Of a stretch of DNA of 14,115 nt, positions 1 to 14,115 are shown one piece after another. A model generated the notes under the pieces. The model made no database searches and was not told the DNA's origin. It worked only from the letters and a program-made list of their open reading frames with translations. How positions within the stretch are numbered: position 1 is the stretch's first letter; every line of letters begins with the position of its first letter. Where the stretch lies: positions 1 to 14,115 of the forward strand of contig JAZDDX010000003.1 in NCBI GenBank assembly GCA_043809315.1. The letters run 5' to 3'. A program made the translations under genes and the position numbers. Origin of the DNA: Pseudomonadota bacterium. GTDB taxonomy: Bacteria > Bdellovibrionota_G > JALEGL01 > DATDPG01.

Positions 1-229
1 GCCGCGGACTATTTTTTCCTCTCGGAGCCCTCGGTCCCTTACGGTCCCGAAGTCACTCCTCTTTGCGGCTCCTGGCCTCTCTCCTAGCGGGAGGTGGCAC
101 AACCTCAAGATCTCCCACCTAGGCGATCTCTCGCCTGTCGAAGTGGTTCATACGCGTGGGGCAGGATGGCGGTCAACGTTCTCGTCAACGAAAAAAGGGG
201 AAAAAATGAGGTTCAATCGTTTCAGCTCG

Positions 230-250
230 TTATCCACAGGTTGTGAAACG
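230..250. promoter_or_regulatory. DnaA box pair (perfect TTATCCACA plus inverted degenerate box)
   Basis: TTATCCACA at 230-238. After a 3-nt spacer, TGTGAAACG at 242-250 (reverse complement CGTTTCACA, 2 mismatches to TTWTNCACA). Lies in a non-coding region. Confidence 0.55.
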
Positions 251-479
251 AAACAAGCCTAGAGGAGAATGCCTGTTTTTGAACGATCTCAACCGTAGGC
301 TTTATCGGAGCCTGTTTAGGGTTGATTGCGAGTATGGAGTAGGGATGGATTGGCCGTCGGCTTAGATGGCAAACAAGCCCTTATGCAAAGGGCCAATACG
401 CGGGTCTGTAAATATGTGCAAGGCTGGACGGGGGTACGGGGTCAGTGTCTGATCTGAGCCTCGACTTGTCGGTGACTTG

Positions 480-1496
480 TTAGCGGACTTCCCAGGTTTC
501 GCCGCCGCTGAGAAGGTCGTTGATCTTTCCTTCTCCCTTTCGTTTCTGGACCTCTTCGATCTGGGTGACGAGGAGTCCTTCATACGTCGGACGTTGAATC
601 CGGCGGAATACGCCGATGGCGACCGGAAACTCGGGCGGCTCCATGCGGGTCAACATGTAGGCGATCATCGGGTTCTCGAGTTCCTCGTTATGAACGAGGA
701 GATCTCTTTCAGTGATTCCGTTTTCGCCGATCGTAACGACTCTCGGTTGGTTGTCGACGAGTTGAATTCCTTTGTTCTTCTTCGCTCCGAACAGCATTGG
801 CTTGCCATGCTCAAGAACGAGAATCTGATCGTCGCGGACGCTTCGTTCCGTGATTCCGTCGAATGCGCCGTCGTTGAAGATCACGCAGTTCTGGTAGATC
901 TCGACGAACGAAACCCCCTTATGTCCGGCGGCTTTCTTGACCACCTCGCCAAAGTGAGGCGGGAGCACATCGATCGATCGGGCGATGAACGTCGCTTCCG
1001 CGGCCAGGGCCAGAGAGCACGCGTTGACCGGCTGTTCGATCGAACCGAACGGTGTCGACTTGGTTTTCTTCCCGAACTCCGAGGTCGGGGAATACTGCCC
1101 CTTCGTCAAACCGTAGATCCGATTGTTGAAAAGGAGGATGTTAATGTCGACGTTCCGTCTCATCGTGTGGATGAAGTGGTTTCCGCCGATCGCGATCCCG
1201 TCTCCGTCCCCGGTCGCCACCCAGACCGAAAGGTCGGGGCGGGCGCACTTTAAACCCGTCGCGACCGCCATCGCCCGGCCGTGGATCGAGTGAAAGCCGT
1301 ACGTGTCCATGTAGTAAGGGAAACGACTCGAGCAGCCGATTCCGGAGATGAACGCGAATTTTTCGCGCGGGATCCCCAGGGTCGGGACGATCTTCTGCAC
1401 GGTCGCGAGGATCGCGAAATCCCCGCAGCCGGGACACCACCGGACCTCCTGGTTCGACACAAAATCGTCACGAGTGAGCTTTCCGTCGTCCGTCAT
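480..1496 (-). CDS. korB: 2-oxoacid:ferredoxin oxidoreductase beta subunit (TPP-binding)
   Basis: Motifs WCPGCGDF, SGIGCSSR, HSIHGRA, GDGD...IGGNH, NNRIYGLTKGQYSPT. ATG at 1496 overlaps the alpha-subunit stop (ATGA), so the longer ORF-track start at 1976 is not used. Substrate specificity cannot be determined from sequence. Confidence 0.93.
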   Translation of the reverse strand: MTDDGKLTRDDFVSNQEVRWCPGCGDFAILATVQKIVPTLGIPREKFAFISGIGCSSRFPYYMDTYGFHSIHGRAMAVATGLKCARPDLSVWVATGDGDGIAIGGNHFIHTMRRNVDINILLFNNRIYGLTKGQYSPTSEFGKKTKSTPFGSIEQPVNACSLALAAEATFIARSIDVLPPHFGEVVKKAAGHKGVSFVEIYQNCVIFNDGAFDGITERSVRDDQILVLEHGKPMLFGAKKNKGIQLVDNQPRVVTIGENGITERDLLVHNEELENPMIAYMLTRMEPPEFPVAIGVFRRIQRPTYEGLLVTQIEEVQKRKGEGKINDLLSGGETWEVR

Positions 1497-3349
1497 AGGA
1501 GTTCCTCGATCGCTCCCTTCACATCCTGGATCTTCATCGGCAGCCCGTTCACGATGTTTAGGCCCACCGGATCCACGAGATAATTCGCCCGCAGCATGTA
1601 CCGCAGCTGTCCCAGGTTTCCCTCCGGAACCAGGATCTTCTTGAACTTCGAGAGGACCGGTCCGAGGTCGGGGGGGAGGGGGTTCAGATGGCGGAGGTGG
1701 ATGCTGGAAACCGGCTTCCCTTCTTTTTGAAGTTCCTCGACCGCGGTTGTGATGGCCCCGTGGGAACTTCCCCAACCGACCACCAAGAGATTCCCCTGTT
1801 TCGGACCGAAGATCTCCGTCGGCGGGATCTCCTGCGCGATTCGTTCGATCTTGGCGGCCCGCAACTTCACCATCTTGTCGTGGTTCATCGGGTCGTAGCT
1901 GATGTGGCCGGTGATGTCGGCTTTCTCCAGCCCCCCGATCCGATGCTCCAATCCCGGCGTTCCCGGAACAACCCACGGGCGGGACAGTGTTTTTTCATTC
2001 CGCGCGTACGGCTGGAATTTTGCCGGATCGACGTCGCTCCAGATCTCGAACTTTTTGAAGGAAGAAAGGGCGGGGAGGCGAAGAGGTTCCGCACCGAACG
2101 CAAGGTACCCGTCCGAGAGAAGGAGGACCGGGCACATGTACTTGGTCGCGATCCGAAGCGCTTCCACCGAAAGGAAGAAACATTCGGCCGGGGAAGCGGC
2201 CGCCAGGACGGCGATCGGACAGTCGCCGTTTCGACCGAAAACGGACTGCAACAGATCCCCTTGCTCCGGCTTTGTCGGCATTCCCGTCGAGGGTCCCCCT
2301 CGCTGGACGTCCACGATCACGAGGGGGAGCTCCGCCATCACGGCGAGGCCGATCGCTTCCGTTTTGAGCGCAAGTCCGGGTCCGCTGGTTCCGGTGACGC
2401 CGAGCGCCCCTCCGAATGAAGCACCGATCGCCGAGCAGATCGCCGCGATTTCGTCCTCCGCCTGGAAGGTCTTGACTCCATACTGTTTAAACCCCGACAG
2501 GTCTTGCAGGATTTCGCTGGCGGGAGTGATCGGATAGCTGCCGTAGAACAATTCGCGTCCGGCAAGATGCGCGCCGACGACAAGACCCAGCGCAACGGCG
2601 CTGTTCCCGGTGATCTGGCGGTACGTGCCGATCGGGAGCTTCGCCTGCGGAACCTGATACCGCGTGGGGAAGATCTCTGTGGTCTCGCCGTAGAAGTATC
2701 CCGCCTTGACCGAACGCCGGCACGCTTCCGCGATGTCCGGGGTCTTAGAGAACTTCGCCTCGATCCACTGGAACGTCGGCTCCATCGGACGGTCGTAGAG
2801 CCAGAACATCAGGCCCAGCGCGAAGAAATTCTTGGATCGGTCGACCTCTTTCTTCGACACGGGGAGATCTTTGAGTGCCTCGGCGTTCAACTTCCCGATC
2901 GGCACGTCGACGAGGCGGAACGAACTCAGCGATCCGTCCTCGAGGGGGTTCGCGGCGTATTCCGCTTTCCGGAGGTTCGTCTCGTTGAACGCGTCGGAGT
3001 TCACGATGACCATTCCGCCCTTTTCCATGTCCTTCAGATGGACCTTGAGTGCGGCTGGGTTCATCGCGACCAGGACGTTCGGCTTGTCGCCGGGGGTTCG
3101 GACATTTTGGCTCGAGAACCGAATCTGGAAGGCGCTCACGCCGCGAAGAGATCCCGCGGGTGCCCGGATCTCGGCGGGGAAATCGGGGAAGGTCGCGACA
3201 TCGTTTCCCAGGAATGCAGAGGCGTGTGTGAATTGGGTTCCGGTCAGCTGCATCCCGTCGCCGGAGTCCCCCGCAAAGCGGATCGTAACGGTGTCAAGTG
3301 TCTGCGGCGTGACAGTTCTTTTCTCGTTCTGCTTGCTTTTGTCCGGCAT
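1493..3349 (-). CDS. korA: 2-oxoacid:acceptor oxidoreductase alpha subunit (fused gamma-alpha type)
   Basis: Motifs RFAGDSGDGMQLTG, PAEIRAPAG, YPITPAS, QAEDEIAA, TSGPG, QRGGPSTGMPTK. ATG at 3349 has GAGGGGG upstream. Confidence 0.93.
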   Translation of the reverse strand: MPDKSKQNEKRTVTPQTLDTVTIRFAGDSGDGMQLTGTQFTHASAFLGNDVATFPDFPAEIRAPAGSLRGVSAFQIRFSSQNVRTPGDKPNVLVAMNPAALKVHLKDMEKGGMVIVNSDAFNETNLRKAEYAANPLEDGSLSSFRLVDVPIGKLNAEALKDLPVSKKEVDRSKNFFALGLMFWLYDRPMEPTFQWIEAKFSKTPDIAEACRRSVKAGYFYGETTEIFPTRYQVPQAKLPIGTYRQITGNSAVALGLVVGAHLAGRELFYGSYPITPASEILQDLSGFKQYGVKTFQAEDEIAAICSAIGASFGGALGVTGTSGPGLALKTEAIGLAVMAELPLVIVDVQRGGPSTGMPTKPEQGDLLQSVFGRNGDCPIAVLAAASPAECFFLSVEALRIATKYMCPVLLLSDGYLAFGAEPLRLPALSSFKKFEIWSDVDPAKFQPYARNEKTLSRPWVVPGTPGLEHRIGGLEKADITGHISYDPMNHDKMVKLRAAKIERIAQEIPPTEIFGPKQGNLLVVGWGSSHGAITTAVEELQKEGKPVSSIHLRHLNPLPPDLGPVLSKFKKILVPEGNLGQLRYMLRANYLVDPVGLNIVNGLPMKIQDVKGAIEELL

Positions 3350-3382
3350 GAGTCGATCCAGCCCCCTCAAAAATGCGGGCGG

Positions 3383-3410
3383 ATCATACTCCGATTCTTT
3401 TTTCAGGCAA
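3383..3410 (-). promoter_or_regulatory. Putative sigma70 promoter for korAB inside the queG 3' end
   Basis: Minus strand TTGCCT-N16-TATGAT, ending 33 nt upstream of the korA ATG. Confidence 0.45.
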
Positions 3411-4328
3411 CTCTCGCCCACCTGTGTTCCGCTTGAGGTTTGGAAGGGAGATCCGTTTCAGGCTCGTGTTCTCGAAGAGTTCTTTGTGGCGTTTGGCGTC
3501 CAGCGTTTGGATTTTATCGCGGCTCAGATTGACGTGGAGGAGTGGGGCGAATTCGCCGAGATGTGTCGACGGTGCGGAATAATTCCAGGGGCATACTTCC
3601 TGGCAGATGTCGCACCCCGCGACCCATCCGTCGAGATGACGGGCGATCTCTTCCGGGATCATGTCGGCCCGGCTCTCGATCGTCCAGTACGAGATGCACT
3701 TGCGGGAGTCGAGTTCGTAGGGAGAAAGCAGCGCTCCGGTCGGGCAAGCGGCGAGGCACTTCGTGCAGCCGCCGCAACGGTCGATCGCCGGTTCATCCGG
3801 AGGAAGCTCGATCGTCGTGATCAGCTCTCCGAGGAGGATGTACGATCCGAGCTCGCGGTCGATGAGACAGCAGTTCTTCCCGATCCACCCAACTCCGGCC
3901 CTCTTCGCAAGACTCCGCTCCAGCACTGGCGCTGTATCCACGCAAACCTTCGACTCGAAGGAACAATGTAGATTCTCCACGAGCCACCGTTCGAGCCGCC
4001 GCAGGCGGCCCCGGAAAACCTTATGATAATCCTCCCCCCACGCATACCGTGCGAACTTCGCATCGGAGAGATGGCGGTCGACGACCGGTTTGTACGAAAT
4101 CGCCCCGACGATCACCGAACGGGCTCCAGGGATCAGGAGCGAAAGATCCCCCCGCTTCCGAATCCGCCCCGGTTCGGTCAGGTACCACATTTCTCCTGCG
4201 TGTCCGTTGGCAATCCATGCCCGATACCGTTCGTAATCGTCGGGAGGGGAAGCCGAAGTAATGCCGATCCGGTCGAAGCCGATCGAAGCGGCGTACTCTT
4301 TCAGTCGTTCCTTGAGCGGAAGGGTCAA
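3384..4328 (-). CDS. queG: tRNA epoxyqueuosine(34) reductase
   Basis: Motifs ARYAWGEDYH, VDTAPVLER, GWIGKN, CGGCTKCLAACPTGA, CISYWTIE, GCDICQEVCPWN (two 4Fe-4S cysteine sets). TTG start overlaps the cupin stop (TTGA). Confidence 0.93.
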   Translation of the reverse strand: MTLPLKERLKEYAASIGFDRIGITSASPPDDYERYRAWIANGHAGEMWYLTEPGRIRKRGDLSLLIPGARSVIVGAISYKPVVDRHLSDAKFARYAWGEDYHKVFRGRLRRLERWLVENLHCSFESKVCVDTAPVLERSLAKRAGVGWIGKNCCLIDRELGSYILLGELITTIELPPDEPAIDRCGGCTKCLAACPTGALLSPYELDSRKCISYWTIESRADMIPEEIARHLDGWVAGCDICQEVCPWNYSAPSTHLGEFAPLLHVNLSRDKIQTLDAKRHKELFENTSLKRISLPNLKRNTGGRELPEKRIGV

Positions 4329-4654
4329 GCCTTGGTGTCGGGGGGGGGGGCGAGGACAACCAGCATGACCAGACGCTCCTCGGCCATGTTGATCACGCCG
4401 TGCTCTTCATTCATCGGAACCAGAACCGCGGTGCCGGCCCGGAATTCACGCGTGGTCCGGCCGACGGTGAAACGCCCGGTCCCCTCCAGGATAAAGTAGA
4501 TTTTGTCTGCGTCGGTGTGTTTGTGGGGACGCTGGGCCTGCCCCGGCTCGAAACAACAGATCTCCGTCACCACGCGGTCGGTGGTAAAGACGTCATGCTT
4601 CTGCATCTTGTCGGCAGAAAAACGGATGAGCGATCGAAATTCGATCGTTTTCAC
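4325..4654 (-). CDS. Cupin-domain protein (Cupin_2-like)
   Basis: Motifs FEPGQAQRPHKH...DKIYFILEGTG and G.AVLVP..EEHGV.N; 109 aa; GTG start. Confidence 0.85.
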   Translation of the reverse strand: MKTIEFRSLIRFSADKMQKHDVFTTDRVVTEICCFEPGQAQRPHKHTDADKIYFILEGTGRFTVGRTTREFRAGTAVLVPMNEEHGVINMAEERLVMLVVLAPPPDTKA

Positions 4655-4701
4655 GGAGCGACCATACCAAAAATTTTTCCTGTTCGCCCGAAATAAGGTT
4701 T

Positions 4702-6588
4702 TCAGGCCACGGTCTGATGTTTTTTCAGGATCGCCTGGAACTCTTCGTCATTCAGCGCTTCTTTTTCCAGCAATTCCGCGGCCAACTCGCGGAGAAGAAT
4801 CCCTTCTTTTTTAAGAAGTGAGGTCACCGTTTCCAGCCGTTCCGTGAGGATCTCTTTCACCTCGTCGTCGATCTTTCGGGCGGTCTCCTCGCTGAAGTTT
4901 TTCCCGGCCGAGATCGTCCCGGAACCGCTGACCAGCAACGGAGTCCGGTCGTGATCGACCGTCACGGGGCCGAGCGTTTTTCCCATCCCGTACTGTGTAA
5001 TCATGCTGCGGGCGATCTCCGTCGCCCGGTTCAGATCGTCCGAGGCACCGGTCGAGACGTCGTTGAACGTGACCGTCTCGGCGGCCCGGCCGCCCAGGAG
5101 GACGTCGACTTTTTCGATCAGCTCTTTCCGGGTCATGAGGTAGCGGTCTTCGGTCGGGAGTTGCAGCGTGTAGCCGAGAGCGCCGATTCCACGCGGGATG
5201 ATCGAGATCTTGTGAACCTTGTCGCTGGAGTTGCGGAACGCCGCCACGACAGCGTGCCCCGCCTCGTGGTGGGCGACGATCTCCTTTTCCCGCTTGTTGA
5301 TCACGCGGTTCTTCTTCTCGAGCCCCGTCAGGATCCGGTCAACCGCCTCCTCGAAGTCGGTCATTTGGACCTCTTTCTTGTTTCGGCGGGCGGCTAAGAG
5401 CGCTGCTTCGTTCACGACGTTCGCGAGATCGGCCCCGACGAATCCCGGGGTCCGTTTCGCGGTCGTCTCGAGATTGACGTCGGCGCCGACCTTCACGTGC
5501 TTCGCGTGCAGATCGAGGATCGCGCGCCGCTCTTTGACGTCCGGCCGTCCCACCAGGACCTGGCGGTCGAACCGGCCGGCACGCAGGAGAGCCGGGTCGA
5601 GAATCTCGGGGCGGTTCGTCGCCGCCATGATGATCACCCCGGTTTGAGCGTCGAAGCCGTCCATCTCGACCAGAAGTTGATTGAGCGTCTGTTCCCTTTC
5701 GTCATGTCCCCCCATCATCCCGACCCCGCGGGCTTTTCCGACGGCGTCGAGCTCGTCGATGAAGATGATGCAGGGGGCTTTTGCCTTCGCCTGCTGGAAC
5801 AGATCTCGCACTCGAGCCGCGCCGACCCCGACGAACATCTCGACGAAATCCGAACCCGAGATGTTGAAGAACGGGACCTTAGCTTCGCCGGCGATCGCTC
5901 GCGCCAGCAGTGTTTTCCCGGTACCCGGAGGCCCGACGAGCATGATCCCTTTCGGCAACTTCCCTCCGAGGATCGTGAACCGTCGCGGATCACGCAGAAA
6001 CTCGATGATCTCCTTCAACTCCTCTTTCGCTTCATCCACCCCCGCGACGTCCTCGAAGGTGGTCGGTTGCCCTGCTTCCGCTTGGAGGCGGCCGCGGCTC
6101 TTCCCGAACTTCATGATCTCCGCCCCCGGACCCCCCATTCGGCGCATGATGAAAAGCCATGCGACGACGAAGAGCGCGACCGGGAGAATGTAACTCAGCA
6201 ACTCCTGGAGCCCCTTGTTCTGGATCTTCTGTTCGTACGGCGTTCCGATTTCGTCCAGGAGTTTGTAAATCGAATCGTCGTTCGCCGGGCGGGCGGCGGA
6301 GAGACGCTCCGGGATCTCACTTAAAATCCGGGAGAACGAATTTTCCTGCTTTGCCGGTGCCGTTTTTTTCGGGAGCTCCCCGATCACGTACTGGTCGTCG
6401 AGATAGATCTTAATGAACGTCTTCGCGTGGATCTTCCCCTTCATTTCGCTGTACGGGATCATGCCCGGAGGTGCGGGGGGGCTCAGGATCCCATAGAGCA
6501 GCACGGCGCCGAGGACCAGCCCCACGTAGACGAACGGGGAGCGGACCTTTTTGGGCGGCACTTTCGGCGTTTTGCGGGGGGAGGGCAT
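4702..6588 (-). CDS. ftsH: ATP-dependent zinc metalloprotease FtsH
   Basis: Two TM segments, Walker A GPPGTGKT, Walker B IIFIDELD, second region of homology [21 protein letters not shown], and HEAGH zinc motif. ATG 6588 preferred over TTG 6648; start is uncertain. Confidence 0.95.
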
Positions 6589-6681
6589 TCGAGTGCCGGG
6601 AATATAGTCTCCCCCGGGCGTTTGTCCATCGTGGGTCAACGTAGGCAAGCGGCGTCAGTTTTGATAAGTTCCGCCACCCAT

Positions 6682-8232
6682 ATGATGAGACGAACTCGTA
6701 GTGGAACCGTTTTCGCGGCGTTGCTTCTCCTCTCGGCGTGCAAGGATTTTGATTGGCAGACGGTCCGGGAGAAGTTCCAGAAAGGGGATCAGAAACCCTG
6801 GACCGAGAATGTGGCGAGCCAGCAGGCGACGGTGCCGTTCAAAGGACAGGCGCTCGCGGCCGACACCTTCATCCGGATCTCCAAGAACGCAGATCTGGGG
6901 GTCGTCAACATCCGAACCACGAAGATCTACAAACAGAATCGCGGCTATCCGTTCTTTTTCTTCGGGCCGAACAACCAACAACAACGCTCCCCGTTCGACG
7001 ACTTTTTCGGAGGGGAAGACCCGTTCCGCCAGTTCTTCGGCGGGGGACCGAACAATGATCCGATGGAACAGAAAGCGACGAGCCTTGGATCCGGATTTGT
7101 TTTGAATGAAGACGGCTACATCGTGACCAACAATCACGTGGTTGCGAATCAGGACGAGATCATGGTCACGATCGGAAAAGACCAGGAGTACAAAGCGAAG
7201 GTGATCGGGACCGACCGGAAGACCGATGTCGCCCTGATCAAGATCCGCCCGAAAGAGAAACTGAAACCCCTCACGCTCGGGGACTCCGACCAGCTGCAGG
7301 TGGGTGAGATCGTGATCGCAATCGGAAACCCGTTCGGTCTTTCCCACACGGTCACGCAAGGGATCGTGAGTGCCAAGGAGCGGTCGATCGGCGCCGGAGC
7401 GTACGACAACTTCATCCAGACCGACGCATCGATCAACCCGGGGAACTCAGGGGGGCCGCTGCTCAATCTTAAAGCGGAAGTGGTAGGGATCAATTCGGCG
7501 ATCGTCGCTTCGGGGCAGGGGATCGGTTTCGCGATCCCGATCAACACCGCCAAGAACATCATCATACAGCTCAAGGACAAGGGGGCGGTCACGCGCGGCT
7601 GGCTCGGCGTCTTGATTCAAAAAGTCGATCCGGAGCTTGCGAAGTCGCTCGGCCTCAAAGACCGCCGCGGCGCTCTGGTTTCGAGCGTCACGAAAGGAAG
7701 CCCCGCCGCGAAGGTCGGGATCAAGTCGGGGGATCTGATTCTCAAGGTCGACGGAAAAGAGATCTCGGAGTTCAACGAGCTTCCGCGTCTGATCGCGGAA
7801 GTTGCGGTTGGACGAAAAGTGACAGTGGAAATCCTGCGGGATGGAAAGCCGATCAGCTTCGAGGTGACGATCGGGGAGTTGAAGCAAGAGAAGGAAGCGC
7901 AAGCGGACGAAACGGAGGAGGAAGAGCCGTCGAAACCGATGAAGCCGGACCGCTTGGGGTTGGTCGTGGCGCCGCTGACCGACCGGATCGCTCGTGAACT
8001 CGAACTCGAGGCGGGGACTGCCGGGGTCTACATTCAGTCCATTGATCCGACCGGGACCGCCGCCGAAAAGGGGGTCCAACGGGGAGACGTGATCGTCGAA
8101 TTGAACAAGAAGAAGATCAACAATGTCGGCGATTACCGTAAGATCATGAAATCACTTGGAAAAGGCGACACCGTGCTCCTCCTGGTCCGGCGTGGAGCAG
8201 GGGTCACACTTTATGTGGCTTTTACGTTATAA
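6682..8232 (+). CDS. degP: HtrA/DegP/DegQ (Do family) serine endoprotease with two PDZ domains, predicted lipoprotein
   Basis: Motifs GSGF, TNNHVV (His), TDVALIKI (Asp), IQTDASINPGNSGGPL (Ser), RGWLGV PDZ1 and a second PDZ. N-terminus MMRRTR...ALLLLSAC has a lipobox. ATG at 6682 or 6685; the ORF-track start at 6427 overlaps ftsH. degP versus degQ is not resolvable. Confidence 0.92.
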   Translation: MMRRTRSGTVFAALLLLSACKDFDWQTVREKFQKGDQKPWTENVASQQATVPFKGQALAADTFIRISKNADLGVVNIRTTKIYKQNRGYPFFFFGPNNQQQRSPFDDFFGGEDPFRQFFGGGPNNDPMEQKATSLGSGFVLNEDGYIVTNNHVVANQDEIMVTIGKDQEYKAKVIGTDRKTDVALIKIRPKEKLKPLTLGDSDQLQVGEIVIAIGNPFGLSHTVTQGIVSAKERSIGAGAYDNFIQTDASINPGNSGGPLLNLKAEVVGINSAIVASGQGIGFAIPINTAKNIIIQLKDKGAVTRGWLGVLIQKVDPELAKSLGLKDRRGALVSSVTKGSPAAKVGIKSGDLILKVDGKEISEFNELPRLIAEVAVGRKVTVEILRDGKPISFEVTIGELKQEKEAQADETEEEEPSKPMKPDRLGLVVAPLTDRIARELELEAGTAGVYIQSIDPTGTAAEKGVQRGDVIVELNKKKINNVGDYRKIMKSLGKGDTVLLLVRRGAGVTLYVAFTL

Positions 8233-8252
8233 TAACAAATAGTTATCTGCCA

Positions 8253-8281
8253 TTGACAGAACGGAGAAGGAATTTTAATTA
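8253..8281 (+). promoter_or_regulatory. Putative sigma70 promoter of the sigma factor gene
   Basis: Perfect -35 TTGACA at 8253-8258 and an AT-rich -10 region TTTTAATTA at 8273-8281; exact register is ambiguous. Confidence 0.55.
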
Positions 8282-8305
8282 GCACTCGATGTCTGTGACT
8301 GCTAA
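8279..8305. promoter_or_regulatory. CIRCE element (HrcA operator)
   Basis: TTAGCACTC-gatgtctgt(N9)-GACTGCTAA versus consensus TTAGCACTC-N9-GAGTGCTAA: one mismatch, exact spacer. Confidence 0.9.
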
Positions 8306-9152
8306 CAGATTGACGGCCCTCACCGTCCGCGACGGACTAGATCTCTATTTTCGAGAGCTCCACAAGGTTTCCGTTTTGTCGCGAGCCGAAGAACGACGTC
8401 TCGCCGATCGTTGGTATGAAACCAGGGACCGCGAGGCAGGTCGGGTGCTTGTTCTCTCGAACCTTCGCTTTGTCGCGAAGATCGCACAGGAATATGCGCG
8501 GTACGGACTCCGTTTGGCCGACCTGATCCAGGAAGGAAATCTGGGATTGTTGCATGCGGTCGACCGGTTCGATCCGCGCAAAGGGTATCGTCTGATCACG
8601 TACGCGGTCTGGTGGATTCGCGCTTACATCCAAGCGTTTATCTTACGATCATGGAGCATCGTCCGGACCGGGACGACGAGGATCCAACGGCGGATCTTCA
8701 GCGGGCTTCAGAGGGCCCGGCAGAAGATCGCGGCGATGACCGGTGCGTCGGAGGCGCCGACGAACCGTCAGCTGGCCGATGTGTTGAGTGTTTCAGAGGA
8801 CGATCTCAAGGACACGGTGTCAAGGATGCAGCAGCGGGACGTCTCGATCGATCAGCCGGTCACGTTGGACGGAGACCGGGTTTTCGGCGACACGTTGGCG
8901 GACGAAACACCGAACGCCGAAGCACGTCTCATCGCCAGCGACCTTCAGATGAAGGTTCGGGAGAAGATGGACGAGGTGTACGAGGATCTCTCGCCGCGCG
9001 AACGATATCTGGTCGAGCATCGGTTGCTGGCCGAGACGCCGATTACGCTTGAGACGGTCGGCCGCCAGTTCGGTGTGACGCGAGAACGGGTTCGTCAGCT
9101 TGAAAGCCGCCTCAAAGGGAAGCTCCGTCTGGCTTTCGCTCCAGTCGCCTAA
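8289..9152 (+). CDS. rpoH: RNA polymerase sigma factor, RpoH/sigma-32 family
   Basis: Region 2 DLIQEGNLGL..AVDRFDP.KGYRL.TYAVWWIRAYI, followed by RpoH-typical ILRSWSIV..GTT..QRRIF (degenerate RpoH box). Region 4 TLETVGRQFGVTRERVRQLE. No region 1.1. Confidence 0.85.
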   Translation: MSVTANRLTALTVRDGLDLYFRELHKVSVLSRAEERRLADRWYETRDREAGRVLVLSNLRFVAKIAQEYARYGLRLADLIQEGNLGLLHAVDRFDPRKGYRLITYAVWWIRAYIQAFILRSWSIVRTGTTRIQRRIFSGLQRARQKIAAMTGASEAPTNRQLADVLSVSEDDLKDTVSRMQQRDVSIDQPVTLDGDRVFGDTLADETPNAEARLIASDLQMKVREKMDEVYEDLSPRERYLVEHRLLAETPITLETVGRQFGVTRERVRQLESRLKGKLRLAFAPVA

Positions 9153-10699
9153 CAGTTTTTCTCTGAAACCACCTTGGCTTGGGTGAACAAAAGCAGATAG
9201 TCGCGCCCCCCTGCCTTCGAGTCGGTGCCGGACATGTTGAACCCTCCGAACGGATGCGCCCCGACCAACGCCCCGGTGCATTTCCGGTTCAGATAGAGAT
9301 TTCCGACGAAGAACTCCCGCCGCGCCTTCTCTAAGTTGGCGCGCGATCCGCTGTAGACCGCCCCGGTCAACCCGTACTCGGTGTTGTTTGCAACCCGGAT
9401 CGCCTCGTCGAAATCCTTCACCTTCGTGACGGCGAGAACCGGTCCGAAGATCTCCTCCAGCGAGAGACGGGCTTCCGGCTTGATGTCGGTAAAGACGGTC
9501 GGAGCGATGAAGTAGCCGTCGCCGTGAACGGTCCGGCCGCCGGTCAAGAGTTTCCCTTCTTCCTTTCCGATCTCGATGTACTCGAGAATCTTCTTGTACG
9601 CCGATTCGCTGACGACCGGCCCCATGTTCACGTCGGGATCGGTCGGGTCTCCGACTTTAATCTTCTCGGTCCGCTCGCGGATTTTCTCGACCAACCGATC
9701 GTAGATCTCTTCGTGGATGATGGCGCGGGAGCATGCGGAACATTTCTGCCCCTGGTACCCGAACGCCGCGGCGACGATTCCGGTCGCTGCGTCATCGAGC
9801 GGGGCGTCGCGGTCGACGACGATCGCGTCTTTCCCCCCCATCTCGGCGACGACCCGCTTGATCCATTTCTGGCCCGGTTCCGCCTTGGCGGCGAAGTGGT
9901 TGATCCGGAGGCCGACTTCTTTCGAGCCGGTGAAGGAGATGAACCGGATCTTCGGGTGCGCGATCAGGTGATCCCCGATCTGCGCCCCTTTTCCGGTCAC
10001 GAAGTTCAGGACGCCGTCCGGGAGACCGAGCTCCTTCATCAGCGCCGCTAACTGATATGCGATCCCCGGTGAATCACTCGATGGTTTCAAGATCACGCAG
10101 TTCCCGGAGACGATGGCTGCCGTCGTCATCCCGACGCAGATCGCGAGGGGAAAGTTCCACGGGGGGATGACGGCGCCGACGCCGAGAGGGATGTAATAAA
10201 GATGGTTGGTTTCGCCTGCCACCGGCGTAAGCGGCTGCGGCCCCCCCAGGCGGAGCATCTCGCGGGCGTAAAACTCCATGAAGTCGATCGCCTCGGCGGT
10301 GTCGGCGTCTGCCTCGACCCAGTTCTTGCCGGTCTCGAAGATCATCCAGGCGGAGAACTCGTGCTTTCGCTCCCGCATTTTGGCGGCGGCACGGAAGAGA
10401 AAATCTGCCCGCTTTTCGGGGGCGGTACGCGACCAGGTCTCGAACGCGTTCCATGCGGTTTCGATCGCCTGGTCGAGGTGAGCCGTCGTCCCTTTCTGGA
10501 AACGGCCGATTACCTGAGAAGTCTTGGCGGGGTTGATCGAAGGGAAGGTTTCAAGGTCGGAAATCTCCTTGCCGCCGACGACGAGCGGGTAGGTCTTCCC
10601 GAGGAGGGCGCGGACCTTCTCGATCGCGCGCTGCATCCCTTTCCGGTTCTCGGGTTTGGTGAAATCGGTCAACGGTTCGTTTCGGAATTCGGTTGGCAT
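9149..10699 (-). CDS. pruA: L-glutamate gamma-semialdehyde (1-pyrroline-5-carboxylate) dehydrogenase
   Basis: Motifs FRNEP..DF, EADADTAEAIDF, IPPWNFP, FTGS, AEMGGKD, GQKCSACSR, EEIFGP, GNLYLNRKCTGALVG.HPFGGFNMSGTDSKAGG (RocA/PruA type). ATG at 10699. Confidence 0.93.
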   Translation of the reverse strand: MPTEFRNEPLTDFTKPENRKGMQRAIEKVRALLGKTYPLVVGGKEISDLETFPSINPAKTSQVIGRFQKGTTAHLDQAIETAWNAFETWSRTAPEKRADFLFRAAAKMRERKHEFSAWMIFETGKNWVEADADTAEAIDFMEFYAREMLRLGGPQPLTPVAGETNHLYYIPLGVGAVIPPWNFPLAICVGMTTAAIVSGNCVILKPSSDSPGIAYQLAALMKELGLPDGVLNFVTGKGAQIGDHLIAHPKIRFISFTGSKEVGLRINHFAAKAEPGQKWIKRVVAEMGGKDAIVVDRDAPLDDAATGIVAAAFGYQGQKCSACSRAIIHEEIYDRLVEKIRERTEKIKVGDPTDPDVNMGPVVSESAYKKILEYIEIGKEEGKLLTGGRTVHGDGYFIAPTVFTDIKPEARLSLEEIFGPVLAVTKVKDFDEAIRVANNTEYGLTGAVYSGSRANLEKARREFFVGNLYLNRKCTGALVGAHPFGGFNMSGTDSKAGGRDYLLLFTQAKVVSEKNC

Positions 10700-10707
10700 G
10701 GCGCGGG

Positions 10708-10735
10708 AGTATAACAACGGGGAAGGACGCCGCAA
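10708..10735 (-). promoter_or_regulatory. Putative extended -10 sigma70 promoter of pruA
   Basis: Minus strand TTGCGG-N16-TATACT with TGn extension, 8 nt before the ATG. Confidence 0.55.
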
Positions 10736-10793: not shown

Positions 10794-10869
10794 AGGGGCG
10801 TAGCTCAATTGGCAGAGCACCGGTCTCCAAAACCGGGGGTTGCAGGTTCGATTCCTGTCGCCCCTGCCA
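10794..10869 (+). tRNA. tRNA-Trp(CCA)
   Basis: 76 nt cloverleaf: acceptor stem AGGGGCG/CGCCCCT, D arm GCTC..GAGC, anticodon arm CCGGT-CTCCAAA-ACCGG (anticodon 10827-10829), T arm GCAGG-TTCGATT-CCTGT, encoded CCA end. Confidence 0.97.
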
Positions 10870-11998
10870 GCAAATTCAAATCATTTCCCGGTGTTGGAAG
10901 ATTTTCGAAAATCGGTGAAGTAGCTCCGGACCTTGTTTGTGCCCAATTTGTGCCTACCGCCAACATTCCCTGCGTCTTCTGATCGGGGCCGAAGGCACGG
11001 TCAAGAGCCTTCGCAGCGTTCAAAGTATGAGCCGGTGAGAGGTGCGCATATCGTAGGGTCATCTCGATGGTCTTATGCCCTAAAATCTCTTTTACCGTGG
11101 CCAGATCTACGCCTGCCATAACGAGATAAGACGCGGCGGTATGGCGAAGGTCGTGGAAACGGAAATTATCGACGCCAGCGGACTTACAGGCCCGCAGAAA
11201 CGCATGGTGGATGTCTTGCCAGCGACCCGCTGTAATTGGATTGAAAAAGACATATGGAACGTCGAGGCGGCGAATCTTGCTGACCTCGCGGAGGAGTGCG
11301 GTGGCCGTGTCGTTAATAGGAACAGCTCTCCGTTCGTTGTTCTTGGTGTCTTCAAGAATTACTGAACGATTTTGAAAGGAGACCTGCGACCATTTGAGGT
11401 CCAAGATTTCCGACTTTCTCATCCCGGTATGGGCTGCAAAGATCACAATTGGCTTTATGTACCAGGGGAGAGCAGCAAAAAGCCGCTCCCGTTCGTCTGC
11501 CGTAAGGTAGCGGACACGCCCTTTTGGCTCCCTGAGCATCTCAATTCGTTTGACTGGGTTTTCATGCGCCCAGCCCCACTTAATAGCGATAGAGAAGCAG
11601 TGTTTTAGAAGGGACAGCTCACGATTAATTGTGCCGTTGGCGCGTCCATCGTCCCGTCTCTTCCCAACATATTTTTGGATTAGCTCAGGCGTAATCGCCT
11701 TGAGAAGGCTGTCACCGAAGAATGGAATCAGGTGCTTCGCGCTAGTTACGTGACGTTCTTGCGAGCGGGGCTTGTGGTGCGTCTCGGAATACTCGTTGAT
11801 GTAGATGGAAAAATACTGAGTGAACGAAAGCCGGTTCGCTTTTCGGACCTCGAAATAACGCCCCTCCCGGACCTCAGCCAATCGCTTCCCGAGGTAAAGT
11901 TCCGCATCACGTCGGCCTGGGCCGATCAGCGCGCGAATACGCCGACCGTTGGCGTAGTAATCGACGAAATAATTCTTACCTCGTTTACGGACGCCCAT
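10805..11998 (-). CDS. int: Tyrosine recombinase / phage-type integrase
   Basis: Arm-binding-like N-terminus (MGVRKRGKNYFVDYYANGRRIR), SAM-like core-binding region, and catalytic residues TGMRKSE (R), TKN (K), HDLRH, LGH, RYAH (Y). ATG 11998 preferred; GTG 12037 possible. The stop lies inside the tRNA gene on the antisense strand. Confidence 0.93.
   Translation of the reverse strand: MGVRKRGKNYFVDYYANGRRIRALIGPGRRDAELYLGKRLAEVREGRYFEVRKANRLSFTQYFSIYINEYSETHHKPRSQERHVTSAKHLIPFFGDSLLKAITPELIQKYVGKRRDDGRANGTINRELSLLKHCFSIAIKWGWAHENPVKRIEMLREPKGRVRYLTADERERLFAALPWYIKPIVIFAAHTGMRKSEILDLKWSQVSFQNRSVILEDTKNNERRAVPINDTATALLREVSKIRRLDVPYVFFNPITAGRWQDIHHAFLRACKSAGVDNFRFHDLRHTAASYLVMAGVDLATVKEILGHKTIEMTLRYAHLSPAHTLNAAKALDRAFGPDQKTQGMLAVGTNWAQTRSGATSPIFENLPTPGNDLNLLAGATGIEPATPGFGDRCSAN
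10936..10954. repeat. Direct repeat, putative integrase arm-type binding sites
   Basis: TTTGTGCC at 10936-10943 and 10947-10954 (11-bp period), about 70 bp from the tRNA end. Confidence 0.6.
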
Positions 11999-12072
11999 TC
12001 GTTGCCCTAACCTTATCCGTTTTTGGAGCGAAGCCACACCCCTTCGAAACGGACGATAAAGACAGGCTCCTG

Positions 12073-13050
12073 CTACCCACAGTTCTTGTCCCGGTCAGAA
12101 TATTCAATCTCTGTCGAAAGCTCTGACAGCCAAAGAGTTCTTGGATCAAAGAGAAGGCGGATACCCCCGCCCAGCGAGCCTGAGAAGTGATGGGAGCGAA
12201 TCTTTAAGAAATACAGAAAGGTTTCGGGCTTTGTCCGGTCAGGTCGAAACAGCGAAAGTACGTTGGAAGCCTCCTGGGAGATCGCCGAGGACCCTTTCAA
12301 ATCATCCAACCCCAACGGGCGGCGCTTCTCATCCGGCGAACCTTTTCTTGGGTGAACAATCAGGAGGATCGTTGCCCCGGTCTGATTCGCGACCAGCGCC
12401 AAGTCTCGCATCGTGTTTTCAACTGCAACGGTCTGGTTTTCGGATCGTTCTTCGTGAACCAGATATGCCAGGTGGTCGATAACGATAAGGCGTGTTTTCT
12501 TTTCGCAGACCGCGTACCAAATGGCCTTCAGTAGCCGATCTATTTTGAGTCGGCCGTAATGGTCGAAGAACCAGAAATTCAGGTGATCGAAAACCTCTCG
12601 TGTGGCTTGCAGATCAATGAAATTAGTCCCTCTGTCGAACTCCCGAACGGGTTTTCTTTGGATGAGTTGTGCAAGCTTCTCGGCAGTCGCTTGCTTCGAC
12701 ATCTCCAACGAAACATAGAAAACCCCGTTGATGCCCGGTCGGGCGTAGTCCGCAGCCCAGTTCAAGGCAAAGTTTGTCTTTCCCGTCCCCGTCTCGGCCG
12801 TGATCACAGTTACTTCTCCGGGTCGAAGTCCTCCGAAGGCTCTTCCAAACACTGGCCAGCATTTGGTGGCGTAGCCGAAGATGGTCTCGGGATCGGCGGT
12901 CCTCGCATTTATGACGTGATCGAATAGCTCCCGGATATGAACCACAGAATTCGAAATGTCGCCGACGGCAATAGGGCTTGTTTCATAAGGAGGCTTCCAC
13001 CTGTCTACCTCTTCTTGGGTTATGCTTCTCGGGGTCAAAGTCGGGGCCAT
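12073..13050 (-). CDS. SF4 (DnaB / T7 gp4 / Twinkle-like) replicative helicase, RecA-type domain only
   Basis: H1 GLRPGEVTVITAETGTGKT, H1a VSLEMS, H2 LIVIDHL, H3 LIVHPRK, H4 LDDLKGSSAISQEASNVL, and KIR arginine finger. AGGA upstream of the ATG. Confidence 0.88.
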   Translation of the reverse strand: MAPTLTPRSITQEEVDRWKPPYETSPIAVGDISNSVVHIRELFDHVINARTADPETIFGYATKCWPVFGRAFGGLRPGEVTVITAETGTGKTNFALNWAADYARPGINGVFYVSLEMSKQATAEKLAQLIQRKPVREFDRGTNFIDLQATREVFDHLNFWFFDHYGRLKIDRLLKAIWYAVCEKKTRLIVIDHLAYLVHEERSENQTVAVENTMRDLALVANQTGATILLIVHPRKGSPDEKRRPLGLDDLKGSSAISQEASNVLSLFRPDRTKPETFLYFLKIRSHHFSGSLGGGIRLLFDPRTLWLSELSTEIEYSDRDKNCG

Positions 13051-13475
13051 TCGGAAATTCCTGAAACGTGCGCGTTGTTGTTCTTTCTTTCTAGTTTGTT
13101 CCCAGGTTGCGTCTCGGGTTTCGTCCCATCTTGCGTCTCAAGACACGTAGCATCTTTGATCGCCTCTTTGTCGTAAGTGGTTAATGCCACAATGGTTATT
13201 ATGGTTCCAAGGCGTCCCGGTTCTCGTCTCAATTTTCCTTCCTGCTCGTACCGTTTTACGTATCGCCATAGAGTGGAATGAGAAATGCCTAACCTCTTCT
13301 CAGCTCGGCGACTTCCGAAAAGGACTTGGCCGCGGCGTAGGACGTTGCCATAGATGGTCCGCGTTTCCTGGTTCACGTGTCGCAAAAGATCCAGCAGAAG
13401 TTTGCCGCCCTTTGGGTCAAGAATTGATCCATCGGTGATCCAAGAGAGAGGCAGTTTTATCCACGGCTCGGGCAT
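13035..13475 (-). CDS. Putative phage-type replication initiator (N-terminal winged-helix domain)
   Basis: Pattern WIKL...LLLDLL..VN...G..L.RGQ......LGIS..TL.R.....EQEG.L.....GTIITIV resembles phage replication initiator N-domains. It is followed by a repeat-coded linker and lies directly upstream of the helicase. Confidence 0.7.
   Translation of the reverse strand: MPEPWIKLPLSWITDGSILDPKGGKLLLDLLRHVNQETRTIYGNVLRRGQVLFGSRRAEKRLGISHSTLWRYVKRYEQEGKLRREPGRLGTIITIVALTTYDKEAIKDATCLETQDGTKPETQPGNKLERKNNNAHVSGISEWPRL
13095..13142. repeat. Four degenerate 12-bp tandem units (iteron-like)
   Basis: TTTGTTCCCAGG / TTGCGTCTCGGG / TTTCGTCCCATC / TTGCGTCTCAAG. TTGCGTCTC occurs exactly at 13107 and 13131. 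Confidence 0.6.
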
Positions 13476-13487
13476 GAGTCGTGCGTC

Positions 13488-13676
13488 TTACGATTGCTGA
13501 ACAACGCGAACAGTCTTGGATTCGATGAACTTCAAGAGGTCATCGTCCCGAAACAACACCCTGCGCCCTAATCGGACAAAGGGAATCCGTGGCGGTGTTA
13601 TCCTGGTCCATCCGCGCAGAGTGCTTACAGAAAGCTTCAGTTTTTCTGAGGCTGTGAAAATGTCGATTAGATCCAT
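13488..13676 (-). CDS. Excisionase/AlpA-like helix-turn-helix protein
   Basis: 62 aa MDLIDIFTASEKLKLSVSTLRGW...IPFVRLGRRVLFRDDDLLKFIE, an HTH_17/Xis-type pattern. AGGGGGT ribosome-binding site before ATG 13676. Confidence 0.82.
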   Translation of the reverse strand: MDLIDIFTASEKLKLSVSTLRGWTRITPPRIPFVRLGRRVLFRDDDLLKFIESKTVRVVQQS

Positions 13677-13906
13677 TCTGGGACCCCCTGATCTGAGTTG
13701 GTTTGACGAGACAAGAGAATTGTTCGGATGAAGTTCAACGACCGGCGACCCCAAAGGAAGTCACCGGAGGCGTCCCTTGTGAGACCGGGGATGCCATGCT
13801 CACGATGAACTCCATAGAGCCACGATGGCGGGACGCAAAAGAGTTGGCTTACCTCGCGGGTTTTGAGTTTCTTTCTGACTTTCGATGGCAATTGAACTGT
13901 GTTCAT
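13667..13906 (-). CDS. Small MerR-like/Xis-like winged-HTH DNA-binding protein
   Basis: LKTREVSQLFCVPPSWL.......IP...RDASGDFLW....L..IR resembles a MerR-type wHTH. Overlaps the next gene by 10 bp. Start is ATG 13906 or TTG 13942. Confidence 0.6.
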   Translation of the reverse strand: MNTVQLPSKVRKKLKTREVSQLFCVPPSWLYGVHREHGIPGLTRDASGDFLWGRRSLNFIRTILLSRQTNSDQGVPEWI

Positions 13907-13953
13907 GCTCCTAGCATCACAAAAACACTCCCTTTCCTTCAAACCCGATGGAG

Positions 13954-14058
13954 GTTTTTCGGGAACAAAACGTCGGGGGCTCCTGTGGTAGCCATGGAAG
14001 AGGACTTGGTTAGGGTCCTGTCACGCGTGCTTTAGCAGGAAAGCGAGTTTTTCGGGAA
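13954..14058. repeat. 12-bp exact direct repeat GTTTTTCGGGAA
   Basis: Copies at 13954-13965 and 14047-14058. Confidence 0.6.
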
Positions 14059-14115
14059 ATGCTCCCGCAATATTTGCGATATGTTGTTGCTGAGTTTCTT
14101 TCGGTCCGTGGATTG
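14032..14115 (-). CDS. Possible 3' end of an upstream element gene (partial)
   Basis: Open frame from the window edge, QSTDRKKLSNNISQILREHFPKNSLSC*; too short to assign. Confidence 0.25.
   Translation of the reverse strand, partial: QSTDRKKLSNNISQILREHFPKNSLSC

Follow-up and report, generated by a model that had tools for sequence, protein, structure and literature searches.

The integrase gene and the tRNA-Trp gene that it enters

The DNA analyzed here (the window, 14,115 nt) makes up the whole of contig C3 in an assembly of 2.42 Mb and 44 contigs (GCA_043809315.1). A second contig of the same assembly, C15, carries further sequence relevant to the locus; coordinates without a contig name are those of the window. 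The window was found to contain an integrase gene (int, product Int) that converges on an intact tRNA-Trp gene and whose reading frame continues into the antisense strand of that gene. The features of this region are as follows:

10794-10869, plus strand: intact tRNA-Trp(CCA), the sole tRNA found in the window (ARAGORN)
10805-12037, minus strand: tyrosine integrase open reading frame (ORF) from the ORF list, GTG start, 410 amino acids (aa), converging on tRNA-Trp
10805-11998, minus strand: integrase gene from its likely ATG start (11996-11998), integrated form of 397 aa, based on homologue N-termini
11030-11509, minus strand: Phage_integrase catalytic domain, residues 177-336 (Pfam PF00589, E 1.1e-34)
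10872-11029, minus strand: C-terminal extension ahead of the tRNA, residues 337-388, with helices modelled to about residue 358, then W365 and a low-confidence linker

Homologous proteins were found to start at the residue aligned with M14 of the integrase, and the ATG at 11998 is therefore its likely start; residue numbers throughout are nevertheless those of the 410-aa GTG form. The PF00589 domain together with the R-K-H-R-H/W-Y residues indicates that the protein is a tyrosine recombinase of the phage integrase type. In an alignment of 125 homologues R207, H295, R298, and Y330 were invariant and K232 and H321 nearly so, and the comparison with PHROG 1 (integrase) gave an E value of 2e-82. 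Besides, SAM-like core-binding domains were located by Pfam at residues ~71-169, and residues 15-58 were modelled by AlphaFold2 as a three-stranded sheet plus a helix; heterobivalent integrases of the lambda and P2 kind are defined by an arm-binding N-terminal domain together with arm-type repeats that flank the core.

The frame stays open for 74 residues past the Pfam domain and 64 past the ALD motif, and the translation ends ...RYAHLSPAHTLNAAKALD... followed by ...LLAGATGIEPATPGFGDRCSAN and the stop. The last 21 codons and the TGA correspond to 10805-10870 and are antisense to tRNA-Trp, crossing its 3′ half, with the TGA itself (10805-10807) facing tRNA positions 12-14 in the D-arm. Both the extension of about 64 codons beyond the RYAHLS...ALD segment and its antisense end in the tRNA at 10805-10870 had been pointed out in a preliminary description of this DNA, and the ORF translation and the ARAGORN prediction agree with it on both. 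In the stretch from residue 337 up to the tRNA, the remaining two minus-strand frames are interrupted by two and three stops; by shuffling, the 53 codons of this stretch would remain open by chance with a probability of 0.066. Taken by itself, the read-through in the window integrase thus appears only weakly beyond chance, and it is the comparison with homologues (see below) that makes it convincing.

The DNA that encodes the extension (10872-11029) presumably also serves as the P′ arm of attP, the attachment (att) site of the circular form. Two candidate sites were found within it:

10900-10913: 14-bp perfect palindrome GATTTTCGAAAATC, encoding PIFENL, within the tail coding region
10937-10956, plus strand: two direct TTGTGCCYA repeats (10937 and 10948), 11 bp apart, over the GTNWAQ codons; candidate arm-type sites

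The palindrome-encoded PIFENL is kept in the homologue with 77% identity (P0002), and the palindrome may be a protein-binding site. A tryptophan occupies the W365 column in 81 of the 125 homologues. A site related to TTGTGCCYA, CGTGCCCAA, was found at C15:3071-3079; the number of matches to the motif in the window was not above chance (3 versus 2.57 expected). The arm-like repeats reported in the preliminary description are thus present as two repeats and a palindrome, without an excess of the motif over expectation.

Two att copies and two encoded integrase C-termini

A search of the tRNA region against the whole assembly (blastn) yielded one strong extra match. Window positions 10824-10871 and C15:3222-3269 were shown to be identical in 48 of 48 bp and to lie in the same orientation (E 8e-21), and both copies of the att core, one beside each end of the presumed element, are thus present in the assembly. 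The duplicated 3′ segment of tRNA-Trp, which had been expected at the other end of the element, was in this way found as an exact copy. The corresponding features are:

10824-10871: att core, attL copy, 48 bp, exact direct repeat of C15:3222-3269
10872-14115: left part of the integrated element, low GC content, running off the contig end
C15:1-3221: right part of the element, low GC content, ending at the second att copy
10805-10823, minus strand: host-coded end of the integrated Int (last base of the D405 codon, RCSAN, and TGA), antisense to the D-arm and the 5′ strand of the anticodon stem

The repeat opens at the anticodon loop's 5′ edge and closes 2 nt beyond the tRNA's 3′ end, so that the 5′ part of the tRNA gene is host DNA and everything from the anticodon loop onward falls within the att repeat. 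Since none of the other tRNAs that ARAGORN found in the assembly (45 in total) is a tRNA-Trp, the core copy on C15 is a displaced fragment. The GC content was 0.518 for C3:10872-14115 and 0.509 for C15:1-3221, compared to 0.592 and 0.590 for the outer flanks. The exact repeat and the drop in GC content on the element side therefore delimit an element that starts at C3:10872, extends past the end of this contig and resumes on C15 (1-3221). With an intact tRNA gene and a displaced 3′ fragment, here on different contigs, it has the organization expected of a tRNA-targeting island or prophage with its crossover in the anticodon loop, and the C15 copy of the core is probably the far end of the same element.

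Some observations count against this pairing. The ends of C3 and C15 do not overlap, and an ORF truncated by the start of C15 is not continued at the end of C3; therefore at least one piece of the element is missing. As the two contigs are unjoined, we infer that the two att copies belong together. Besides, a search by synteny for an empty attB revealed nothing downstream that matched the right flank on C15 in the loci of eight relatives; orthologues of the aldehyde dehydrogenase of the left flank were present in all 15 genomes of the order (G000 included). The repeat on C15 might be no partner of this element but a scar of another element, or it might belong to a tandem array; the tail predicted below for the circular form would then be wrong. 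tRNA sites often hold tandem islands, and the unjoined contigs and the interrupted ORF are compatible with such an origin. We consider it improbable, however, because of the exact 48-bp repeat and the equally low GC content on both flanks, and because the tail encoded on C15 resembles that of P0003, a database homologue of the window integrase.

The core lies wholly inside the int ORF (approximately residues 389-404), an arrangement that, judged from the sequences, corresponds to that in the phages Mx8 and phi52237 and that bears out the earlier proposal of an attP inside int (10824-10871 within 10805-12037). The stop of int lies in tRNA sequence derived from the host, 17 nt left of the core. 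Since it is outside the core, the two DNA states encode different C-termini; had the core spanned the stop, the two forms would have been identical. The integrated form ends ...GFGDRCSAN, of which six residues (DRCSAN) are coded by the host. When the circle was assembled in silico by placing C15:1-3221 before the core and int, the ORF comprised 443 aa compared to 410 aa for the integrated form and was identical through residue 404. The tail of the circular form consists of 39 element-coded residues in place of the six host-coded ones, which makes the protein 33 residues longer. It is read from contiguous DNA of C15 (3221 down to 3104) as ...LAGATGIEPATPGFG followed by ERTRHEDVQTSSVAKKHCDTAQPEPGSGNGGGKSDKPKK, with its stop at C15:3104-3106, and its DNA sits between the end of a DUF5681-like ORF (C15:3019) and the core. 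As proposed before, the excised form would accordingly carry a different tail, and the integrated and episomal DNA states are predicted to encode Int C-termini of 6 and 39 residues, respectively, past the point of divergence. This point is preceded in both forms by the catalytic domain and 68 further residues.

Together these features are very likely explained by an integrase of a small tRNA-Trp element that has its attP core inside int and a tail that depends on the DNA state. The element would be an integrative element of at least 6.5 kb, with genes for a helicase, a helicase loader, helix-turn-helix (HTH) regulators, and other ORFs, and would sit at the anticodon-loop position of the single tRNA-Trp gene detected in the assembly. 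The core of attP, and probably both arms, would be located within the 3′ end of int. After integration, the int frame would pass through the 48-bp core into the 5′ half of the host tRNA and stop at the D-arm TGA, giving a protein of 397 aa; in the circle, the frame would continue from the core into the element's opposite end, giving a protein of 430 aa with a tail of 39 residues. Catalysis would be intact in both forms. We infer that the circle exists and that both Int proteins are made, and the tail is very probably translated.

Homologues and the origin of the exchangeable tail

In a search of 5.8 billion protein clusters, five close homologues of the integrase were found, P0002 (77% identity), P0005 (65%), P0003 (62%), P0004 (60%), and P0006 (51%), and everything beyond these showed at most 48% identity. 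None of the five has a stop before the tRNA or att sequence. P0002, P0005, and P0006 end ...AG(A/E)TG(I/V/L)EPAT(P/L)GFGDRCS(A/T)(N/S), which represents the same antisense tRNA-Trp and the same stop. The end of P0004, WWYKRDSNPRPSVSKTDALSS, reads by eye as the antisense of a different tRNA, with its stop at the equivalent D-arm TGA. P0003 departs from the tRNA sequence exactly at the end of the core (...GFGE) and continues with a non-tRNA tail of 39 residues. From W365, which is invariant in this clade, to the tRNA-derived part no indel was present in the six sequences compared, and insertions of 7-8 residues lie upstream of W365. In a profile search of a library of 1.84 billion representatives, the clade formed a single 50% cluster (P0004), and the next match was P0122, a protein of 356 aa without the long tail.

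Among 17 genomes of the phylum, G011 was the sole one with a close relative (52% identity). Its integrase shows the same antisense read-through into tRNA-Trp and stops at the same place. The element (L143, G011:C110:1-9945) comprises ~8.3 kb with 31-43% GC and carries int at its far end beside tRNA-Trp; the first 33 bases of the contig belong to the same att repeat and represent a second att copy. In the circular form, the frame would continue for 48 further lysine-rich residues unlike the tail of the window. The cargo of G011 comprises one DUF2971 protein and ORFs without Pfam matches, and no similarity was found between the cargo of this element and that of the window element, so the int-att module appears to move between elements. 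Two further tRNA-Trp sequences were noted in G011: a 53-nt 3′ fragment with 91% identity (C321:1494-1546, L139), which points to a further att scar, and a second full-length sequence resembling tRNA-Trp with 89% identity (C257:313-391, L138), which suggests a strain variant or a contaminant.

Read-through is thus present in all close homologues. The preliminary description had left chance loss of the stop codon as the alternative, with close homologues that stop after the YAH helix and a single substitution or indel that explains the difference; the five homologues and G011 contradict it. A stop loss private to this genome, or an assembly or sequencing error in it, would agree with the P value of 0.066 obtained for the open frame of the window sequence alone, yet it is hardly credible given that five independent database homologues and one other genome read through.

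More distant relatives were collected in order to compare the end of int with the position of the tRNA. A search of metagenome contigs with the single protein yielded only relatives with at most 40% identity, and a single-protein search of genome and viral contigs gave no matches. The search with an alignment gave 80 genome loci with 31-47% identity and 16 viral loci with at most 33%, none of them belonging to the close clade. The distant set comprised 121 loci with a tblastn match, 100 of which had at least 30% identity and reached the catalytic Tyr. After removal of 18 loci without the RY.H motif by pattern and one with the ORF running off its contig, 81 were analyzed; 77 of these had at least 150 nt after the stop, and ends were counted from the first in-frame stop. 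A tRNA was located within -130 to +500 nt of the int stop at 43 loci. At 34 of these the stop was found 0-60 nt before the tRNA, and at four it overlapped the tRNA, namely at L003 (a clade member) and at three loci with the tRNA co-oriented with int. In the 125-homologue alignment, the median tail after the catalytic Tyr was 41 residues, compared to 80 here.

A gap of 13-14 nt between the int stop and the tRNA recurred at L039, L043, L044, L067, L069, L073, L080, L084, L093, and L110, with varied tRNAs and phyla, which suggests that the gene end and the core site stand in a fixed geometry in the family. The long tails of about 20 of the 125 homologues resemble, by eye, translations of the sense strand of a tRNA. 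Sense-tRNA-like C-termini of this kind (e.g., AGVAELVDALDSKS and GFDSHLRH) were seen in P0023, P0041, P0048, P0054, P0057, P0071, P0077, P0086, P0103, P0118, P0120, P0121, and others, and gene callers seem to read into co-oriented tRNAs; such read-in was confirmed at the DNA level for L056, L061, and L068 only. At L060, a contig of a Nitrospira metagenome-assembled genome with a 35% identical integrase, int runs through an antisense tRNA 3′ fragment, by eye of tRNA-Arg(UCU), and 11 more codons (7081-7185). No intact tRNA was found at this locus by ARAGORN, and it looks like another overlap of int and att core in a configuration other than attL. On these comparisons, abutting a tRNA is the rule in the integrase family and running into it sporadic, while antisense read-through is fixed in one clade. 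As only a few bases routinely separate the end of int from its tRNA target, automated annotation will frequently extend integrases by peptides that are translated from either strand of a tRNA gene.

The exchange of the tail may be an adaptive, integration-dependent switch, in which a tail present only in the episomal form alters the activity, specificity or stability of Int and different isoforms carry out integration and excision. This is possible but doubtful in our view. Several observations are in line with it. Read-through was found in six of six clade members down to 51% identity and with constant spacing. The episomal-form tails of the window, P0003, G011, and the Burkholderia phage vB_FUB5a stay open for 39, 39, 48, and 23 codons, respectively, and by eye all four have lysine-rich ends; for AT-rich G011, 48 open codons in DNA of 32% GC are unlikely by chance (P = 0.0145). 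The circle tail of the window and the tail of P0003 have the same length (39 aa) and are alike from the core onward, with 11 of 39 residues identical without gaps (P = 8e-5 by shuffling, or 7.6e-4 when the first two residues are left out). There is also precedent: in Mx8 the new 3′ end modifies the specificity of Int, according to a review (PMC6070905), and in mycobacteriophages proteolytic tags are described as removed by integration, with Int tagged as well (PMC3694055). If this account is true, the episomal tail could be a degradation signal or an extra DNA contact that matches the form of Int to the direction of the reaction needed. Compact int-att modules would then offer control of directionality or stability without an extra factor, which would be relevant to the control of lysogeny and to integrase tools.

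A number of results weigh against a functional tail. The circle tail alone matched P0003 in BLASTP with an E value of only 0.14 and in a different register; the match of a longer peptide (E = 1e-10) was carried by the tRNA-derived part. A word search with the P0003 tail recovered only P0003 itself among 12 candidates. The G011 circle tail is unrelated in sequence and has 48 aa instead of 39, so that tail sequences are not conserved across the clade. The 39 codons of the window tail would stay open by chance with a probability of 0.18. The swapped segment begins 75 residues after the catalytic Tyr. In the AlphaFold2 model (125 sequences; mean predicted local distance difference test score, pLDDT, 85.3) helices extend up to residue 358, the block pLDDT falls from 62 to 36 after residue 350, and beyond about residue 360 it is 36-51 without secondary structure. 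The conserved linker motifs PIFENL and GTNWAQ coincide with the palindrome and the direct repeats, and their conservation may thus reflect a constraint on the att arms rather than protein function. Furthermore, most relatives lack the overlap, and judging from the 34 of 43 loci that stop before the tRNA, a stop before att is clearly viable in the family.

Alternatively, the stop was lost in one clade, translation ends at whatever stop comes next (the D-arm TGA or one in the P arm), and the extra residues are neutral; we give this close to an even chance. It fits with the 34 of 43 relatives that stop 0-60 nt from the tRNA, many with gaps of 13-14 nt in which one substitution extends the frame, and with the roughly 20 of 125 homologues that by eye run into a sense tRNA, three of them confirmed in the DNA, as this makes running into a tRNA common and sporadic. 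A variable tail modelled with low confidence would likewise be expected. On the other hand, the frame has remained open without an indel in four diverged sub-lineages, for each of which the 24 linker codons would stay open by chance with a probability of about 0.23, and the open tail of G011 is unlikely by chance. Taking the evidence on tail function together, the swap is rather likely to be a tolerated side effect of the tight fit between att and the 3′ end of int, and that it is a selected state-dependent device is conceivable, though we lean somewhat away from it.

Relation to known systems

In a tblastn search of 50,697 phage records, Burkholderia P2-like phages were among the best matches (29.5-29.6% identity, 95-96% coverage, reaching residue 408). 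In BEK and vB_FUB5a, the annotated int coding sequence runs on for 60 nt after the match to the window protein ends. In the free genome of vB_FUB5a, int ends ...LVAWGGIEPPTRGFS followed by KRTADTSAPSGKASRPPKKRKAA, that is, a tRNA-like 3′ fragment and a tail of 23 residues, and no intact tRNA was found at the int locus of this phage. According to Ronning et al. (2010, PMC2920897), Burkholderia P2-like phages of subgroup A carry attP at the 3′ ends of their integrase genes, with 45 bp identical to the 3′ end of tRNA-Phe, and these integrases are described there as terminating in tRNA-Phe when integrated and not when episomal. The junction of phiX216 has been confirmed by sequencing, as reported by Kvitko et al. 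(2012, PMC3548686). The members of this group (phi52237, phiE202, phiK96243, and phiX216) thus share with the window a homologous integrase, an attP in the 3′ end of int, and a core that is read antisense. They differ in the tRNA (tRNA-Phe versus tRNA-Trp here), the length of the core (45 versus 48 bp), and the tail (23 aa in vB_FUB5a versus 39 aa). Moreover, the Burkholderia carriers are tailed phages, whereas the element here is small and no virion genes were seen in its assembled parts. The available text of the Burkholderia phage papers reports no functional study of the two Int forms.

Myxophage Mx8 resembles the window in having attP within the int coding sequence and a new 3′ end on integration; a review states that the new end modifies the specificity of Int (PMC6070905). 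In the Mx8 Int coding sequence, a TGLEPV-type, tRNA-antisense-like segment was found by eye about 115 residues before the end. The match between Mx8 Int and the window integrase was limited to 85 residues of the core-binding domain (BLASTP E = 7e-4). Mx8 reportedly exchanges about 110 residues, compared to 39 for 6 here. Functional data on two Int forms come from Mx8 only among these systems. APSE-2 represents the more typical relative, as its int stops 14 nt before the annotated attP.

In two other systems, integration also alters a gene that contains att. In suicidal archaeal integrases of the SSV type, att lies inside int and integration splits the gene into two inactive fragments, as described in the literature (PMC8371274, PMC5861418); here, in contrast, the catalytic protein stays whole and the distal tail alone changes, which sets the window integrase apart from the SSV type. 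In the integration-dependent immunity of mycobacteriophages of the BPs and Brujita type, attP is described as located in the 3′ end of the repressor gene, the repressor in its viral form being tagged for degradation, and Int of these phages is described as carrying a degradation tag as well (PMC3694055). The principle is similar, in that viral and prophage states encode different protein C-termini, yet the window element does not belong to that group: there the repressor is altered, whereas here it is int, and the Xre-type HTH gene of the element (C15:2181-2408) is clear of att. No degradation tag was identified in the Int tails. The preliminary description had cited Mx8 and SSV1-type integrases as precedents; the papers cited above agree on att inside int for both, and the Burkholderia P2-like phages add a closer precedent.

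The layout itself is therefore already known from Mx8 and from the distantly related integrases of the phi52237 group; no publication on the clade of the window integrase was found in literature searches that were not aimed at that clade. New here are the fixation across a clade, two or three natural or predicted episomal tails that can be compared, and the ending of int near the tRNA throughout the family. The layout is extended from a few cultured phages to a small, non-phage-like element of an uncultured lineage, and the locus is a clean example, verified computationally, of a DNA rearrangement that changes the C-terminus of its own catalyst. That episomal-only P-arm tails form a recurrent, selected device of tRNA-targeting tyrosine integrases, spanning the window clade, the Burkholderia P2-like phages, and Mx8, seems unlikely.

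Cargo of the element and host flanks

Besides int, the assembled parts of the element were found to carry the following genes:

12073-13050, minus strand: DnaB-like helicase domain protein, 325 aa (Pfam DnaB_C, E 4.4e-21; PHROG 239 primase/helicase, E 3.1e-52)
13035-13475, minus strand: HTH protein with a match to a DnaD-like helicase-loader PHROG (Pfam and PHROG)
13488-13754, minus strand: HTH_17 protein, 88 aa, candidate excisionase or regulator (Pfam HTH_17, E 1.1e-6; PHROG 66, E 5.7e-5)
C15:947-1483 and C15:1480-2052, minus strand: adjoining pair of paralogous ORFs (178 and 190 aa), element cargo
C15:2181-2408: Xre-type HTH protein, repressor-like, ~800 bp from the core and without overlap with att
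C15:2429-3019: weak DUF5681-like ORF

The two paralogues showed no Pfam or PHROG match; they have hydrophobic N-termini and near-identical C-terminal ends (...TSPFTVYVVDNL..KRYEF.VTPDSTTREIVK).

The right host flank encodes the following protein:

C15:3043-5733, plus strand: large repetitive protein with GLUG and fibronectin type III motifs

In the relatives examined, no gene for a similar protein was found beside tRNA-Trp. The left host flank (1-10735) contains housekeeping genes for 2-oxoacid:ferredoxin oxidoreductase subunits, QueG, FtsH, an HtrA-like protease, a sigma-70 factor, and the aldehyde dehydrogenase. The aldehyde dehydrogenase gene was also found to adjoin tRNA-Trp in several relatives (loci L129, L131, L133, and L135) with varying orientation of the tRNA, which is on the strand of the aldehyde dehydrogenase gene in L129 (genome G005) and divergent from it, as in the window, in L131.

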